Source: Alphaproteobacteria bacterium (GTDB taxonomy: Bacteria > Pseudomonadota > Alphaproteobacteria > UBA2966). Taken from it: 64,000 bases of DNA. Positions within the stretch are counted from its first letter, which is position 1. Each line of letters opens with the position of its first letter. The position numbers and the translations under genes are program-made. Shown piece by piece: positions 21,796 to 27,500 of this stretch. Where the stretch lies: contig OZ241357.1 of assembly GCA_965200265.1 (NCBI GenBank), positions 8,179-72,178 on the forward strand, given 5' to 3'. The notes below the pieces were generated by a model that saw only the letters and a list, made by a program, of their open reading frames with translations, made no database searches and was not told where the DNA came from.

Positions 21796-23111
21796 TGCGC
21801 CGCCATCCCGGCCTCGGCCTTCCAGGCCGCCGGCACCCGGCGGCGGCGGGTTTCGCGTTCGGCGATCAGGGCGCGGGCGAGAGACCCGCGTCCGGAGCGG
21901 ATCGCGGCCACCACCAGGGTCTGATCGAAGACGTCCCGTTGGGCGTGGCTGCCGCCGGACAGGCGCAGGTCGTAGCGGACGGGCAGGAGGAGGTCGACGG
22001 CCATGCCGCAGTCGCCGTCGTGAAACGCCCGCAGCGCTTCCGACAGGGCAACGCCGGCATCGACGGCGCGCGCGGCGACGGGGTCGTTGCGGGCCGATTC
22101 CCCGCGCATCGCCGCGAGCAGATCCGCCGCCGCCTCCCGCCGGCCGGTGGCCAGCAGGGCCATCAGGTAGTTGGTGCTGAAGAAGACGTTCGCGGCATCG
22201 CGCGCGCGGGCCTCCGCGCGCTCCCCCAGCTCCTCCCAGCGGTGGCCGACGTCGACGCCCCGGAGCGCCAGCCGCCAGAGCAGGGCGGCGCCGTTGGCGA
22301 TGTCCGTCGCGAAGTCGGTCTTCTCGCCGCGGATGCCGGTGTCGTGGAGATCGAGGACCTCGTCGATCTCGTCCCGCTCCAGGTGATGGAGGGCGCGGTG
22401 CCACCACAGGTGAAAGCGAAAGTTGTTGTTCCCGAGCCAGTCCGCTTCCGTGCGCTTCAGCCATTCGATCCCGTCGGCATGTCTTCCTTCCATTTCGATC
22501 GTGTGCGCGACGGCATGGACGGCCCAGGAATCCTCGGGGTTCAGGTCCACGGCCTCGCGTCCCGCGCGCTCCGCCGCCTCGCAATCGCCGCTTTCCTCGA
22601 AGCCGAAGGACAGCATCCCGAGGACGAATCCGTAGCCCGGCACGTCCGGGTTCCACGCATGAAGGGCGCGCCCGATGACGTCGCGCATGTTGGCGGCGTC
22701 GCCGCGCCAGAAATGGAGAAACTGCGTCAGCTTCAGCGTCGTCAGGTCGGTCGGATGGTCGACGGCAATGCCGTCGAGCACGGCCAGCGTGTCGACGGCC
22801 CGGTCGTCGAGCAGCAGGCGGGCCGCGGAAACGTGGCGCCGTTCCCGGTCCGTCGCGCCCCCGGCCGCCCTCCCGGCCGCGTCCAGGCATTCGCGCGCGG
22901 CGGGCAGGAAGGCCGGGTCGAAGGCCATCTTCAGCAGGTAGACCTTGAGGCAGCGCGCCATGACGAAGTCCGGATCGGCGTCGAGCGCGGCGTCGAGGTG
23001 GTCCATGGTGTCGGGCTTCTGCGCCAGATAGCCGGCGACCGCCTTCTCGTATGCCGAGAGCGCCTCGTCGTTGGCGACGGTGACGGGCAGACCGCGGACG
23101 TCGACGGACAT
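21792..23111 (-). CDS. TTC38-like tetratricopeptide-repeat protein
   Basis: ORF 21792..23111, 439 aa. WAVHAVAHTIEMEG and FRFHLWWH motifs are typical of the TTC38 family. Confidence 0.75.
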   Translation of the reverse strand: MSVDVRGLPVTVANDEALSAYEKAVAGYLAQKPDTMDHLDAALDADPDFVMARCLKVYLLKMAFDPAFLPAARECLDAAGRAAGGATDRERRHVSAARLLLDDRAVDTLAVLDGIAVDHPTDLTTLKLTQFLHFWRGDAANMRDVIGRALHAWNPDVPGYGFVLGMLSFGFEESGDCEAAERAGREAVDLNPEDSWAVHAVAHTIEMEGRHADGIEWLKRTEADWLGNNNFRFHLWWHRALHHLERDEIDEVLDLHDTGIRGEKTDFATDIANGAALLWRLALRGVDVGHRWEELGERAEARARDAANVFFSTNYLMALLATGRREAAADLLAAMRGESARNDPVAARAVDAGVALSEALRAFHDGDCGMAVDLLLPVRYDLRLSGGSHAQRDVFDQTLVVAAIRSGRGSLARALIAERETRRRRVPAAWKAEAGMAAQ

Positions 23112-23246
23112 GGACGGGCGCTCCTCGATTCCTCCCGCGAGGCGGCGTCTCGGGACCTGCTCAGACTATCACCGAAGCGGGATCCGAGTCGGGGGCGGCG
23201 CGACCCGGTTGACCGGATATCCGGGCGCGCCTAGAAGGTCGGCAGC

Positions 23247-23323
23247 GACCCCGTAGCTCAGTCGGATAGAGCGGCGGATTCCTAATCCGCAGGCCGGGGG
23301 TTCGAATCCCTCCGGGGTCGCCA
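23247..23323 (+). tRNA. tRNA-Arg (anticodon CCT)
   Basis: Folded by hand. Acceptor GACCCCG/CGGGGTC, D arm GCTC-AGTCGGATA-GAGC, anticodon stem GCGGA/TCCGC with loop TTCCTAA, variable AGGCC, T arm GGGGG-TTCGAAT-CCCTC, discriminator G, encoded CCA. 77 nt. Confidence 0.93.
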
Positions 23324-23366
23324 CTCCCCGCGGGAACGGCCGGACATTTCCGCACCGGAACGACGC

Positions 23367-24398
23367 ATGGTCGCGATGCCTGAAGCGCCGCTCGCAATGG
23401 GCGGGGACACGGACGTGAAAGCGCTCGCCGAAGGCGTCCGCAGCGGCGACCGGCGCGCCCTGGGACGCGCCGTCACGCTGATCGAGTCGCGCCGGGCGGA
23501 TCACCAGGACCGGGCGCTGGCGTTGCTGGACGTGCTGCTTCCCGATGCGGGCAACGCGGTTCGGGTCGGCGTCTCCGGTGCGCCGGGCGTCGGCAAGTCG
23601 ACGTTCATCGAGGCGGTCGGGGTCGGGTTGACGGCCGCCGGCCACCGGGTCGCCGTCCTGGCGGTCGATCCGTCCTCGAGCCGTTCGGGCGGTTCGATCC
23701 TCGGCGACAAGACGCGCATGAACGACCTGTCCCGGGACCCTGCCGCGTTCGTTCGGCCGTCGCCGGCCGGGGGCGCCCTCGGGGGGGTGGCGCGGCGCAC
23801 GCGCGAGGCCATGCTCGTCTGCGAGGCCGCGGGTTTCGACGTCGTGATCGTGGAGACGGTCGGGGTCGGCCAGTCCGAGACGGCGGTGGCCGGCATGGTC
23901 GACACCTTCCTCCTGCTCATCGCGCCCGGCGGCGGCGACGAGCTGCAGGGCATCAAGCGGGGGATCGTGGAGCTCGCCGACGTCGTGTTCGTGAACAAGG
24001 CGGACGGCGACCTCGCCGGTCAGGCCAGGGCCGTGGCCGCCGAGTACGCCGCCGCCCTGCGTCTCCTGCGGCCGGCGACGAAGTTCTGGACGCCGCGGGT
24101 CCAGACGTGCTCGGCCCTGAAAGGGACCGGCATCGGAAACGTCTGGCGCACCATCGAAGCCCACCATCGCGCATTGCGGGCGGGCGGCGAGCTCGGCCGC
24201 CGCCGCGAAGCGCAGGCCCGTCACTGGATGTGGAGCGAGATCGGCGACAGTCTGATCGCGTCCCTGCGCGAAGACCCCGCCACGGCGGCGCTGATACCGG
24301 CGCTCGAGCGGGACGTGAGCGCCGGCCGCGCCACGCCCGGCGCGGCCGCGCAACGCCTGCTCGGCGCCTTTCGCGCCGCCGGAGACGGCGGCCGATAG
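23367..24398 (+). CDS. meaB: methylmalonyl-CoA mutase-associated GTPase MeaB/ArgK
   Basis: ORF 23367..24398. [13 protein letters not shown]-loop [18 protein letters not shown] and NKADG motifs. Confidence 0.9.
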
Positions 24399-24532
24399 CC
24401 CGGCAATTTCCGTCCTGCCTGTCCCTTCCCGTATGTCCCTGGGAGCGCCGGCGTCCCGCCGGCATCGTGCGAAGCGCGAACGGGCGCCATCGGAGGATCG
24501 GAAGTCCGGGAAGGATGCGGGCCTTCGGCCCG

Positions 24533-24567
24533 CTTGGGAGCGCCGGCGGGACGCCGGCGCTCCCAAG
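24533..24567. repeat. perfect 16-bp-stem palindrome built from two head-to-head GCGCTCCCAAG modules
   Basis: CTTGGGAGCGCCGGCG-gga-CGCCGGCGCTCCCAAG. The same GCGCTCCCA(A/G)GG module is part of the MITE-like family at 37.4, 40.4 and 47.1 kb. Confidence 0.75.
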
Positions 24568-24577
24568 CGGCCCGACG

Positions 24578-24899
24578 GTGTGCAAGGTGTGCAATTCGGC
24601 GCGCTCGTGGTGGCCGGTGGCCGGTGGTCAGTGGCCGGTAGGCGGTGCCCCCACCGTGTGTAAGGTGTGCCATTCGACGCGCCGAACTCGTGCCCCCCAT
24701 GCGGTGTGCAAGGTGTGCAAGTCGCCACGCCGGGCCGCAACCGGCGACTGGCCACCGGCCATAGTGTGCAAGGTGTGCCATTCCGGGTGCGGCCCGGACT
24801 TCCGCGGGATGCGCTCCACGGTGTGCAAGGTGTGCAATACCAGCGCGCCGAACCCCCAACTGGCAACCGGCCACCGGCCATAGTGTGCAAGGTGTGCAA
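24578..24899 (+). repeat. array of six direct 17-nt repeats GTGTGCAAGGTGTGC(A/C)A
   Basis: Copies start at 24578, 24656 (one mismatch), 24704, 24764, 24821 and 24883. Spacing is 78/48/60/57/62 nt and all copies share one orientation. Spacers alternately carry GGCCACCGGCC heptamer-type sequence. Confidence 0.85.
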
Positions 24900-24989
24900 T
24901 CCGGCCCGGCGACGCACCGGGACGATAGCCCTGCGTATCCGGTTCAGACTACTTAGTGGATATTTTTTGTTCACAATGGAACTTTTCTC

Positions 24990-25019
24990 TTGACATGCAT
25001 GGAAACGTTCCCATATCGT
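24990..25019 (+). promoter_or_regulatory. candidate promoter with embedded near-palindromic operator
   Basis: AT-rich patch with TTGACA (24990-24995), 18-nt spacer and TATCGT (25014-25019). The spacer contains TGGAAAC/GTTCCCA, an inverted repeat with 1 mismatch. Confidence 0.35.
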
Positions 25020-25058
25020 TCCACAACGGGAAACCCAGCCGGACACGGAGACACCACC

Positions 25059-25826
25059 ATGCACGCCAACACCGACCGCGACGGCGCCAGGCGTCCGCGA
25101 CGCCAGCGCGCCTTCCTCAAGTCCCTCGCTCACTCCGTCAACGTCGCCCGCGCCTGCCGCACCGCCGGCATCCCCAGACGCACCGCATACCACTGGCGCG
25201 ACGCCGACCCCCGCTTCGCCCGCCAATGGGACGACGCCCTCGACGACGGCATCGACCTGCTCGAGGCCGAACTCCACCGCCGCGCCTTCGAAGGCGTGGA
25301 GAAGCCGGTCTGGCACAAGGGCGAACAGGTGGGGACGGTGCGCCACTACTCCGACGCCCTCGCCATGTTCCTGCTCAAGGCCCACCGCCCGGCGCGCTAC
25401 CGCGACGGCTACCGCCCGCCGGAGGCGGACCGCCTCCCGCGCGCCGGCGCGGCGGCGGGGGCGGTCGGGGACGACCGGATCGAGGACGCCGCCGGTCTCG
25501 ATACCGGGACGGAGGAAGCGCCGGGCGCGGCGGACACGGCGGACGTGGAGATGACGGCGGAGGCCGTGCTGGTGGACGCCCTGGTCGCGGCGGCGACGGC
25601 GACGGTGACGGGCGTCCCGGCCGCGGCGGCGACGGCGGCGACGGTCACGGTGGCGGGCGTAACGGACGCGACGGCCGCGACGGCGACGGTGGCCGGTGCC
25701 TCCGGGTCTCCGCGGCGCCGGCGCCGGCGGCCTCGTGACGCCGGGGCGGCTTCCGTGTATAGGAAGGGGCCGGGAGCGCCGGGCGTTCGCCGGCGAGTCG
25801 AATCGACAGCGGCAGGGAGGCCGCCG
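25059..25826 (+). CDS. phage terminase small-subunit-like HTH protein; no stop codon of its own, in frame with the next CDS
   Basis: Part of ORF 24990..27500. ATG 25059 follows GGAG. Segment VARACRTAGIPRRTAYHWRDADPRFARQWDDAL ... YSDALAMFLLKAHRPARYRD resembles alphaproteobacterial phage small-terminase/HTH proteins. It is followed by an Ala/Thr/Val low-complexity tract. Confidence 0.5.
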
Positions 25827-27500
25827 ATGACCTACGACCTTCTGATCAGGAACGGCACCGTCGTCGACGGGACGGGCGCGCCCGGCAGGCGCGCCGACGT
25901 CGCGGTGGCGGGCGGCAGGATCGCCGCAATCGGCGAGATCGCGGACGGCGCGCGCGAGACCATCGACGCCGGCGATTGCGTCGTGGCGCCGGGGTTCATC
26001 GACCCGCACACCCATTACGACGCCCAGATCTGCTGGGACGGCGCCGTGACCCCGTCGTCCTGGCACGGCGTGACGAGCGTGGTGATGGGCAACTGCGGCG
26101 TCGGCATCGCGCCCTGCCGGCCCGAGGCGCGCGAAATCGCCATGCGCGACCTCGTCAACGTCGAGGGCATCCCGTTCGACGTGCTCGACAAGGGGATCGC
26201 TTGGGAGTGGGAGACGTTCCCGGAGTTCATGGACGCCGCCGACGCGCGCGCGCCTGCGGTGAACCTCGCGTTCCTGGCGCCCCTGACGCCCTTCCGGCAC
26301 TACGTGATGGGCGAGGAGTCGATGGAGCGCGCGGCGAGTGCGGAGGAAACCGGGCGCATCGCCCACCTCCTCGGCGAAGCCGTGGACGCCGGCGCGTTCG
26401 GGTTTTCCACCACCATCCTCAACCAGCACGTGGGATACGAAGGCCGCCCCCTCGCCTGCCGCAACGCCGACGACGCCGAGCTCGCGGCCTATTCCCGCGT
26501 GCTGCGCCGGCGCGGCAAGGGAACCATCGAGATCGCGGCGACGAAACGGATCGGCATCATCGACGACGATCAGTATGCGCTGCTCGACCTGCTGCTGACC
26601 GAGAGCGGTCGCCCGGTCACGTTCCTGGGGCTGGTCGATCGCGACGACGTTCCCGACGCCGCCCGCGACACCCTGGAGAAGACGGCGCCGTTGCTGGAGC
26701 GCGGCGTGCGGCCGCAGATCCTGCCGCTGCCCCTGACGCGCGAGTTCAACATGCGCAACCCGTTTTCCTTCGCCGCCTTTCCCTCGTGGAACCGGGTGTT
26801 CGTCGACAAGTCGAAGGAAGGCCAGCGCGCGGCCTACGCCGACCCGGAGTTCCGGAACGCGTTCCGCGGAGAGATGCGGGAGCGGCTCAACTTTTGCGAC
26901 TTCGACCGGATAACCCTGCACGAGGTCGGGAACCCGGACCTGAAGCGGCTCGAAGGGCGGACCGTCACCGAGATCGCGCGGGAGCGGGGGATCGACGAGG
27001 TCGACGCCTTCCTCGACGTCACCCTCGAGGACGACGTCGACAACGAGTTCGTCTTCACGTCGTTCAACACCCGGATCGACAGCATGACCCGCCTCCTCAA
27101 CCACCCGCACGTCGTGATCGGCCTCGGCGACGGCGGCGCCCACGTGGACATGCTGTGCGACTCGGGCTACCCGACGTTCCTGCTCGGCACATGGGTGCGG
27201 GAGCGCCAGGCCATGACGCTGGAGCGCGCGGTGCGGAAACTGACCGCGGAGCCGGCCGACCTGTTCGGAATCGCCGACCGCGGCCGCCTGTGCGAGGGAA
27301 GCCGGGCCGACGTCACGATCTTCGATCCGCAGAACGTCGGATCGCCCGACCGCAACGAGCGCTCCCACGACCTGCCGGGCGGCGCCAAGCGCATGGTGCG
27401 GCCGTCGCGCGGCATCGAGTGCGTCATCGTCAACGGCGAGCCCGTCTACCGGAACGGCGGGCTGACCGGGGCCGCCCCGGGGCGGGTGCTGCGGTCCTGA
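25827..27500 (+). CDS. N-acyl-D-amino-acid deacylase (D-aminoacylase) family amidohydrolase
   Basis: Inner start MTYDLLIRNGTVVDGTG 6 nt after GGGAGG. PGFIDPHTHYD metal-binding motif, GLGDGGAH, and a C-terminal beta-sandwich segment (VIVNGEPVYRNG). Confidence 0.88.
   Translation: MTYDLLIRNGTVVDGTGAPGRRADVAVAGGRIAAIGEIADGARETIDAGDCVVAPGFIDPHTHYDAQICWDGAVTPSSWHGVTSVVMGNCGVGIAPCRPEAREIAMRDLVNVEGIPFDVLDKGIAWEWETFPEFMDAADARAPAVNLAFLAPLTPFRHYVMGEESMERAASAEETGRIAHLLGEAVDAGAFGFSTTILNQHVGYEGRPLACRNADDAELAAYSRVLRRRGKGTIEIAATKRIGIIDDDQYALLDLLLTESGRPVTFLGLVDRDDVPDAARDTLEKTAPLLERGVRPQILPLPLTREFNMRNPFSFAAFPSWNRVFVDKSKEGQRAAYADPEFRNAFRGEMRERLNFCDFDRITLHEVGNPDLKRLEGRTVTEIARERGIDEVDAFLDVTLEDDVDNEFVFTSFNTRIDSMTRLLNHPHVVIGLGDGGAHVDMLCDSGYPTFLLGTWVRERQAMTLERAVRKLTAEPADLFGIADRGRLCEGSRADVTIFDPQNVGSPDRNERSHDLPGGAKRMVRPSRGIECVIVNGEPVYRNGGLTGAAPGRVLRS

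Follow-up and report, generated by a model that had tools for sequence, protein, structure and literature searches.

The six direct repeats upstream of a helix-turn-helix (HTH) gene in the analyzed alphaproteobacterial DNA (the window, a stretch of 64,000 nucleotides, G000:C1:8179-72178, from the single-contig genome G000 of 3.55 Mb and 69% GC) form a single array within a mosaic repeat family that is specific to this lineage. The gene, judging from its sequence, is a true homologue of phage terminase small subunits (TerS) that retains the DNA-binding and ring-forming core. Array and gene are linked at six TerS copies and three TerS relics of G000, and at 6/6, 4/4, 8/9, and 1/1 TerS copies in four congeneric genomes. 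We therefore propose the doubled octamer that forms the core of each repeat as the predicted TerS site, and the cassette of array and gene as a capsid-less, terminase-derived selfish or domesticated element, a reading to which we give about even chances. The cassette in the window consists of the following features:

24571..24909, + strand: array of six mosaic units, each beginning with the doubled-octamer core
24578-24593, 24656-24671, 24704-24719, 24764-24779, 24821-24836, 24883-24898, + strand: the six cores, located by pattern search
24900..25058, + strand: AT-rich promoter patch, with TTGACA at 24990-24995, an 18-nt spacer, and TATCGT at 25014-25019
25059..25412, + strand: conserved core of TerS, residues 1-118 (HTH and oligomerisation region; phrog_4044, E 3.2e-38)
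25413..25700, + strand: low-complexity TerS tail rich in Ala, Thr, and Val, the right end of the cassette (copies c1-c4 alignable to +640/+670)

The 16-mer pattern GTGTGCAAGGTGTGCA was searched in the window with at most two mismatches, using 100 shuffles as a control. Six matches were found, all on the + strand, starting at 24578, 24656, 24704, 24764, 24821, and 24883 with 0, 2, 0, 1, 0, and 0 mismatches, respectively; the chance expectation is 0.03, and none of the 100 shuffles reached six. The initial annotation, made from the sequence of this stretch, had described co-oriented repeats at irregular distances of 48-78 nt, a perfect 15-mer in five of the six copies, an array end about 160 nt before the HTH open reading frame (ORF), and an AT-rich promoter-like patch in between, and all four observations are confirmed. 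The start-to-start spacings are 78, 48, 60, 57, and 62 nt, five of the six cores share the exact 15-mer GTGTGCAAGGTGTGC (core form GTGTGCAAGGTGTGC[A/C]), and the end of the final core at 24898 is separated by 160 nt from the ATG at 25059. The sole strongly AT-rich stretch between array and ATG (24940-25019, GC 0.39) carries one sigma-70-like site, TTGACA-18-TATCGT at 24990-25019, with 10 of 12 matches (mean of 0.1 in shuffles). The array units exceed the core, with ~34 nt alignable across copies, and the unit types of the window were defined by comparison with other arrays of G000.

The HTH gene, which had been called terminase-small-subunit-like, proved to be a genuine TerS homologue by its match to the PHROG family phrog_4044 'terminase small subunit' (E 3.2e-38). 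The match to Pfam Sf6_terminase is borderline (E 5.7e-6, 26.8 bits at a cut-off of 27), and the NCBIfam matches are weak HTH matches to IS3/IS481 transposase models (20 bits versus a cut-off of 160). By tblastn, residues 19-116 align at ~50% identity with TerS genes from 148 phage records. The matched annotated phage genes adjoin TerL (terminase large subunit) and portal genes, and in Achromobacter phage JWX the homologous TerS gene overlaps TerL upstream of the portal gene. An AlphaFold model of TerS is confident for residues 10-100, and in the PDB its fold is closest to small terminases, with Sf6 gp1 first, although these matches are weak (probability 0.95, E 0.09). The PDB sequence search with TerS and TerL gave no match, and neither protein has a PADLOC family. 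In the G000 species the TerS tail is degenerate, being not conserved among homologues, and the gene has no stop codon of its own. The frame of the window ORF is open to 27500 with no stop codon within the cassette; similarly, no G000 copy has a stop codon in the common region, and the frames continue into downstream DNA.

Array, sigma-70-like promoter, and TerS gene constitute one repeated cassette of ~1.1 kb (~24571-25700 in the window). The six intact TerS copies of G000 (c1-c6) show 100% (the window copy), 99, 97, 95, 83, and 79% identity. Copies c1-c4 have common DNA from ~-250 to +640/+670 relative to the ATG, with 87-94% identity, and c5 and c6 form a second TerS subfamily. The promoter patch is present in nine genomic copies, six before TerS genes and three before TerS relics, and is kept in the congener G003. 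The three extra patches are followed by ~15 to 30 TerS codons or fewer and thus represent truncated relics; they adjoin arrays at 548604, 2110060, and 1194396. An array is found within ~0.7 kb upstream of all nine (6/6 TerS copies and 3/3 relics), in the same orientation as the gene for c1-c4 and inverted for c5 and c6. The ratio of nonsynonymous to synonymous substitution rates (dN/dS) of TerS, 0.28 among c1-c4 and 0.11-0.34 within G001, G003, and G005, indicates purifying selection.

The two TerS subfamilies of G000 differ mainly in the N-terminal HTH region, with a dN/dS of 0.75 between them, and their arrays differ too. In subfamily 1 arrays the spacer is AAGG in 36 of 37 cores, the end is AA in 30 of 37, and the orientation is that of the gene. 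Subfamily 2 arrays have the opposite orientation, the AAGG spacer in 5 of 19 cores, and the CA end in 17 of 19. These subfamily-specific differences would fit a co-evolving protein and site, and linked inheritance would fit them too.

A separate observation concerns the open TerS frames. In five of seven cases the TerS frame, or that of a relic, is in frame with the co-directional downstream host gene (window 25059-27500; G000 296017, 3414315, 2110756, and 1195423), these genes being, as read from translations, an amidohydrolase, RNase HII, a cupin-like protein, a carboxyltransferase, and a dGTPase-like protein. The excess is weak (binomial p ~0.045), and it may reflect selection against out-of-frame read-through.

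The initial annotation had also considered a lone relic or satellite-like packaging signal, to be given up if the repeat were a common dispersed one, unlinked to the HTH gene and not bound by its protein, and had suggested a search of the genome. In that search the 15-mer with at most one mismatch gave 114 matches in G000 (62 forward, 52 reverse; 0 and 1 for the reversed-pattern control), and the core with at most two mismatches gave 132 (79 exact, 35 with one mismatch, and 18 with two). The 132 cores fall into 31 clusters, 19 of them with at least two cores and 12 singletons. The repeat is thus dispersed, and a unique packaging signal is half-refuted by the annotation's own standard; with 10 of the 19 multi-core clusters lacking a nearby TerS gene, the lone signal is not borne out. 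The supposed lack of a link to the HTH gene, by contrast, did not materialize, since all TerS copies have arrays: a TerS copy or relic is found no more than 1.5 kb from 9 of the 19 multi-core clusters, which account for 61 of the 132 cores.

Within every array the cores are co-oriented. The family consensus is ...CCACG GTGTGCAA NN TGTGC[C/A]A(T)TC(G)GCGCGCCGG, of which GTGTGCAA-NN-TGTGC[C/A]A is invariant over the 132 copies, conservation at positions within the search pattern being partly due to ascertainment. The middle dinucleotide is GG in 84 cores, GC in 11, CG in 10, TG in 8, GT in 8, CC in 7, and another in 4. The core is a direct, non-palindromic doublet: the half-site TGTGC[A/C]A occurs twice at a 9-bp distance, and the dinucleotide that separates the two copies varies. 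The half-site of G000 is GTGTGCCA (TGGCACA is its reverse complement minus one base), and the core occurs in units carrying GTGTGCAAGGTGTGCAA and in the variant GTGTGCAAGTTGTGCCA. The arrays of G000 are mosaics built from a small set of units, of 45-46 nt, of 57 nt, and, where heptamer runs are included, of 66-81 nt; the array at 1360077 is perfectly periodic, with ten units of 46-47 nt, and other arrays alternate 46 and 57 nt. By crude gene calls based on third-position GC content (GC3), 69 of the 132 cores are inside ORFs, many of which are over-extended or run-on; at the two sites where congeners were compared, the insertion is intergenic. No obvious replichore bias of array orientation was seen when the cluster list was compared with the cumulative GC-skew extremes at 1.28 and 3.15 Mb.

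Many arrays adjoin promoter-like AT-rich patches between divergent or tandem genes, and the units also hold a CGGCGCGCCG palindrome and small hairpins. Both features would suit a site for some other host protein, regulatory or nucleoid-associated, or an element that acts at the RNA level and is co-transcribed with its neighbors. We find this explanation quite unlikely, as the core is a direct, non-palindromic doublet, the orientation of arrays relative to flanking genes is inconsistent, the species-specific turnover described below is unlike a conserved regulon, and TerS is the sole candidate protein that co-varies with the core. Nor was any Rfam family beyond tRNA detected: a scan of 22500-26000 with E values up to 1 yielded the tRNA and two sub-threshold plastid families overlapping it.

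The exact G000 core is species-specific, with 0-4 matches in each of 40 relatives. The generalised pattern GTGTGCNNNKTGTGC has 107 matches in G000, 139 in G001, 94 in G003, 4 in G002, 0 in G004, and 2 in G005; across 15 further genomes it has 0-3. The same cassette is present in congeners, each with its own version of the doubled octamer, and 25 of 26 TerS copies in five genomes carry such a doublet within 500 nt upstream. In G001 the core is GTGTGCGGATTGTGC (139 genome matches), and all six TerS copies have same-strand cores ~120 nt upstream; in G003 it is GTGTGCG[AG][AG][GT]TGTGCGGA (94 matches) and precedes all four copies. G005 contains nine TerS copies, 62-64% identical, and its doubled octamer TTCGCACAGTTCGCAC (182 genome matches) belongs to the same half-site family on the other strand and occurs once at -334 to -500 in eight of the nine. 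The single TerS gene of G002, a 170-contig draft, has an internal stop and a core-like motif ~250 nt upstream (25 matches). Across species, the half-site and the 9-bp spacing are conserved. Finally, G004 (98% complete) has no TerS and no TerL, and its 0 and 6 near-matches to two core patterns are at background level. In a two-gene comparison G002 is the outgroup and G004 branches within the genus, so that its state looks like a joint loss.

These data also bear on a purely selfish or neutral mosaic intergenic repeat, in which the TerS cassette would be a passenger or preferential inserter, TerS would not read the core, and expansion would proceed by replication slippage and ectopic recombination. 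We consider this a possible, though not a probable, explanation. Mosaic intergenic arrays of this general kind include the BIMEs of Escherichia coli, the NIMEs of Neisseria (RS units bounded by dRS3), and mycobacterial MIRUs, which likewise are dispersed arrays of few unit types, with a conserved short core, variable segments, and a copy number that varies per locus; they are not known to be tied to a terminase gene, and the comparison is one of architecture, not sequence. In agreement with a neutral repeat, every module is species-specific (for example, a G005 hairpin module has 47 matches in its own genome and 0-2 in each of the four remaining congeners), regular arrays of 45-47 nt or 46/57 nt occur far from TerS (1360077, 2396979, and 1750252), c1 and c3 are located at rearrangement breakpoints relative to G003, as expected of recombining repeats, and no transposon-like ends were found. 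It leaves unexplained, however, the conservation of half-site and 9-bp spacing across species and the absence of the family in the sole congener without TerS and TerL, and it does not account for the upstream doubled octamer that 25 of 26 TerS copies keep although the remaining unit sequence has diverged. Arrays at orthologous sites that evolve in concert were considered as well and rejected for the single site tested: the array at G000 3366579-3366840 is an insertion, with ~20 nt there in G004 and G005 and unrelated filler DNA at this site in G001 and G003.

Under the preferred reading of a site recognized by TerS, the doubled octamer would be pac-like and, by its placement, might also serve as the operator of the cassette promoter. 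The cassette would multiply and decay in the genome, leaving behind arrays without TerS; the whole would be analogous in logic to REP/RAYT and would not be the pac site of a resident phage, gene transfer agent (GTA), or satellite. Several observations weigh against this reading. Ten of the 19 multi-core clusters and all 12 singletons have no TerS copy or relic within 1.5 kb. The TerS copies are not independent, as the final core lies inside the duplicated cassette, and their association with arrays is partly one inherited structure. The joint loss in G004 is one event among six related genomes, a small cross-species sample. Where cassettes and arrays end, neither terminal inverted repeats nor target-site duplications were found, and the cassette may therefore have spread by ectopic recombination, or by gene conversion from one array to another, just as probably as by transposition. 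The TerS tail, which contacts TerL in studied phages, is degenerate in G000. In one study, the DNA-binding domain of SF6 TerS is reported to have little specificity for pac repeats (PMC4737164), which implies that repeats beside terS need not be specific sites.

A TerS homologue was detected in 28 of 400 sampled Alphaproteobacteria outside the genus, nearly always in single copy. Among the 80 best TerS loci, the 61 from outside the genus were examined for a downstream ORF and upstream repeats: after TerS there is usually an ORF of 430-530 aa at the position expected for TerL, and upstream repeated 11-mers were observed at 3 of the 61 loci, none of the G000 core type. The alphaproteobacterial genome G265 has 11 matches to the G000 TerS, and G167 has four. 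The eight G265 loci examined (L180-L187) are compact cassettes without GTGTGC/TGGCACA within ~2 kb of the genes, a further point against TerS recognition of the core. Over all 12 loci of G265 and G167 (L188-L191) no such motif adjoins a TerS gene, and three isolated matches lie more than 1.3 kb upstream at two loci. The G265 cassettes, ~0.9 kb long, comprise a short AT-rich promoter, a 255-aa gene with its own stop, and a GC-rich hairpin, with no core arrays, and the four TerS copies of G167 are diverged, without mutual DNA similarity.

The initial annotation had noted the absence of other phage genes, which holds for the ORFs examined beside the array and fails genome-wide: G000 contains one intact TerL homologue. 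This sole homologue (1894059-1895588, - strand, 509 aa) is 1.86 Mb from the window array, between genes named from translations as RNase PH and an oxidoreductase. G000, G001, and G003 have one TerL copy each, syntenic and intact (508-513 aa), 67-68% identical and with dN/dS of 0.20-0.45, which indicates purifying selection on this protein as well. The G000 protein matches phrog_2 TerL with E 6.7e-25, no Pfam model covers it, and it belongs to a very large family named 'terminase' by its sources. This single, conserved TerL is the likely catalytic partner of the TerS cassette. Complex prediction for TerL (A3) with TerS (A1) gave scores of 0.00 and 0.15 relative to a mark of 0.32 and hence no verdict, and the AlphaFold model of TerL from a 6-row alignment has a mean pLDDT of 40.

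Four of the nine G005 cassettes run on into a second ORF, of 515 aa, that overlaps TerS (module -490 to +2200) and matches phrog_2 'terminase large subunit' with E 1.6e-32, two unnamed PHROGs matching better; the overlap of TerS and TerL is arranged as in phage JWX. These four cassettes (L042, L043, L046, and L047) are 2.7 kb long, lie among metabolic genes, and have a long perfect palindrome as the right boundary. The five further G005 copies are all truncated at one position, a few codons after TerL begins, which suggests a single deletion derivative that was later multiplied. Paired genes were also seen on contigs of metagenome-assembled genomes, L143 (2962-4924) and L144, where TerS (153 aa) is next to a TerL 61% identical to that of G005.

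Working packaging signals would be a further explanation, with arrays as chromosomal pac sites and, given a helper, headful packaging of host DNA by TerS and TerL; host DNA might thereby be transferred in the manner of a satellite or of lateral transduction, or the packaging of phages might be sabotaged. Consistent with this explanation are the genuine TerS and the intact TerL, both under purifying selection, the four two-gene cassettes of G005 with ORFs overlapping as in JWX, and the strict co-orientation within arrays, which would set a packaging direction. Still, we judge it unlikely. The complete G000 genome has no match to the PF05065 capsid, PF04860 portal, or PF03354 and PF03237 terminase families, a search that is not exhaustive for capsids since other capsid families were unsearched. 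No phage genes were recognised around the TerS-TerL cassettes, either among the flanking ORFs in G005, whose translations were read, or within 3 kb on either side in L143, where a PHROG scan of the neighbors found no recognisable structural gene. Moreover, TerL is distant from the window array and the TerS tail is degenerate.

The likeness to pac/cos recognition arrays pointed out in the initial annotation stands for the local layout and fails for the genome. The pac region of SPP1 has three direct-repeat sets spanning promoters and the start of terS, and the SPP1/SF6 regions (pacL-pacC-pacR, boxA/B/C) similarly combine short direct repeats upstream of, and together with, a promoter and the terS start (PMC4737164). 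They differ in being one region per genome, whereas G000 has more than 100 sites at 31 places, multiple TerS copies, an unlinked TerL, arrays also without TerS, and species-specific core variants, and the searched capsid and portal families were not found in it. In contrast to a phage packaging module, G000 has no TerL adjacent to TerS, its only TerL being between housekeeping genes. Further phage packaging recognition sites are the P1 pac hexamers and the lambda cosB R sites. The small terminases of SaPI and PICI islands redirect helper-phage packaging; they resemble the present system in being encoded outside a phage with their own recognition site, here a predicted one. However, no integrase, replication, or capsid-remodelling gene lies beside any cassette examined, and the G000 cassette, 1.1 kb long and multi-copy, is not an island.

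The closest parallel in logic is REP/REPIN-RAYT. As reported (PMC3116915, PMC3337134, PMC8266576), it too has a short, lineage-specific, dispersed intergenic repeat that flanks the gene of its presumed acting protein, and repeat and gene co-occur across genomes, as they do here for 25 of 26 TerS copies in five genomes, with G004 lacking both. The differences are that the G000 core is a direct, non-palindromic, co-oriented doublet and not a pair of inverted REPs, and that the protein is a multi-copy TerS-like HTH protein with no known catalytic domain, as opposed to a single-copy HUH tyrosine transposase. We tentatively suggest that sites and their reader propagate themselves here, as a 'REP/RAYT of terminase origin', with multi-copy TerS, 100-180 species-specific cognate sites per genome, one conserved TerL, and no phage head genes found. 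Rings of TerS might synapse or mark the arrays, cleavage by TerL followed by repair might amplify and disperse them, and arrays could divert the capsids of infecting phages, resulting in gene transfer or a packaging decoy. For TerS-driven array growth there may be a precedent: T4 gp16 has reportedly been proposed to synapse pac-like sequences and to drive local amplification.

A search of the literature on multi-copy or orphan terminase cassettes with repeat arrays found nothing relevant, and there is some chance that a terminase has here given rise to a site-and-reader system of a new type. To our knowledge, for most dispersed repeats of bacteria no 'author' protein is known, the chief exception being REP/RAYT. 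In the present case the protein is of a different class, a phage small terminase, and its tie to a repeat family shows in position, in co-variation within one genome, and in presence and absence across a genus. If TerS does bind the doubled octamer, this would be a second, independent domesticated mobile-element protein that maintains its own population of sites, it would provide natural TerS and site variants for studying the specificity of ring-shaped HTH assemblies, and it would raise the possibility, open to testing, that genomes without phages have pac arrays in their chromosomes. For annotation, it matters that such TerS genes are otherwise taken as prophage markers and that the arrays are located at rearrangement breakpoints. 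The remaining features around the window cassette are as follows:

23247..23323, + strand: tRNA-Arg(CCT), context outside the element (ARAGORN; Rfam tRNA, 71.4 bits)
23367..24398, + strand: MeaB-type GTPase gene, left host flank (Pfam MeaB, E 5.9e-110)
24426..24570, no strand assigned: MITE-like hairpin repeat of 144 nt, a separate dispersed family (inverted repeat I4, arms 100% complementary)
24609..24646, + strand: run of GGCCGGT-type heptamers (inverted repeats I2, I3, and I8)
25824..27500, + strand: amidohydrolase gene, right host flank, in frame with the TerS ORF (Pfam Amidohydro_3, E 3.3e-35)

The initial annotation had named iterons, or arm-type sites of a decayed integrative element near tRNA-Arg, as alternatives. 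Direct repeats do lie near a tRNA gene, but iterons of a replicon or arm-type sites at this tRNA are extremely improbable here. The MeaB gene separates the array from the tRNA and, together with the tRNA, forms a block that is collinear in congeners, the repeat is spread over 31 places of the chromosome, and no integrase or replication gene is among the three neighboring ORFs scanned (MeaB, a TPR protein, and one unmatched).

Homology to the congener MeaB loci stops at 24395-24400, and homology to their amidohydrolase loci begins at 25699-25729. The amidohydrolase has orthologues with 80-94% identity in all five congeners, none beside MeaB. In G003 the DNA after MeaB corresponds to the DNA just after copy c3 in G000, and the DNA before the amidohydrolase in G001 and G003 corresponds to that just before the c3 locus. 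Copies c1 and c3 thus sit at both junctions of a rearrangement relative to G003. The sites are window 24400 and 25700 and G000 357158-358445 and 366940-368258 (MeaB-rpmB region, X-amidohydrolase); in G001 the neighbor after MeaB reads as purC. Directly upstream of the G003 amidohydrolase orthologue (L056, 929-1289), with no TerS nearby, lies an array of 180-nt period whose unit contains three half-sites, TCCGCACAC..TCCGCACAA TCCGCACAC.

The heptamer run at 24609-24646 is inverted relative to the in-array runs at 24740-24761 and 24852-24880, and other arrays of the genome are flanked by the same heptamer runs. The hairpin to the left of the array has perfectly complementary 24-nt arms (24440-24463 and 24542-24565). 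At least 11 near-full-length copies with ~90% identity are present elsewhere in the genome, among 99 blastn matches, and the 24-nt arm has 53 genomic matches with at most two mismatches. Copies of this hairpin also adjoin other arrays (997361, 794677, and 1632932). Short-read contigs break at repeats, and in four metagenome runs the contig depth over 24418-24491 is 10-400 times that of the flanks. Finally, tandem paralogous genes are found beside c3 (four genes, 363054-365884, - strand) and c4 (two genes, 667941-669139, + strand) in G000. One that was tested has no Pfam family; the proteins, of 144-188 aa, have a heptad-like repeat at the N-terminus and also contain 11-residue repeats and a single membrane segment, and a core array lies between neighboring genes.

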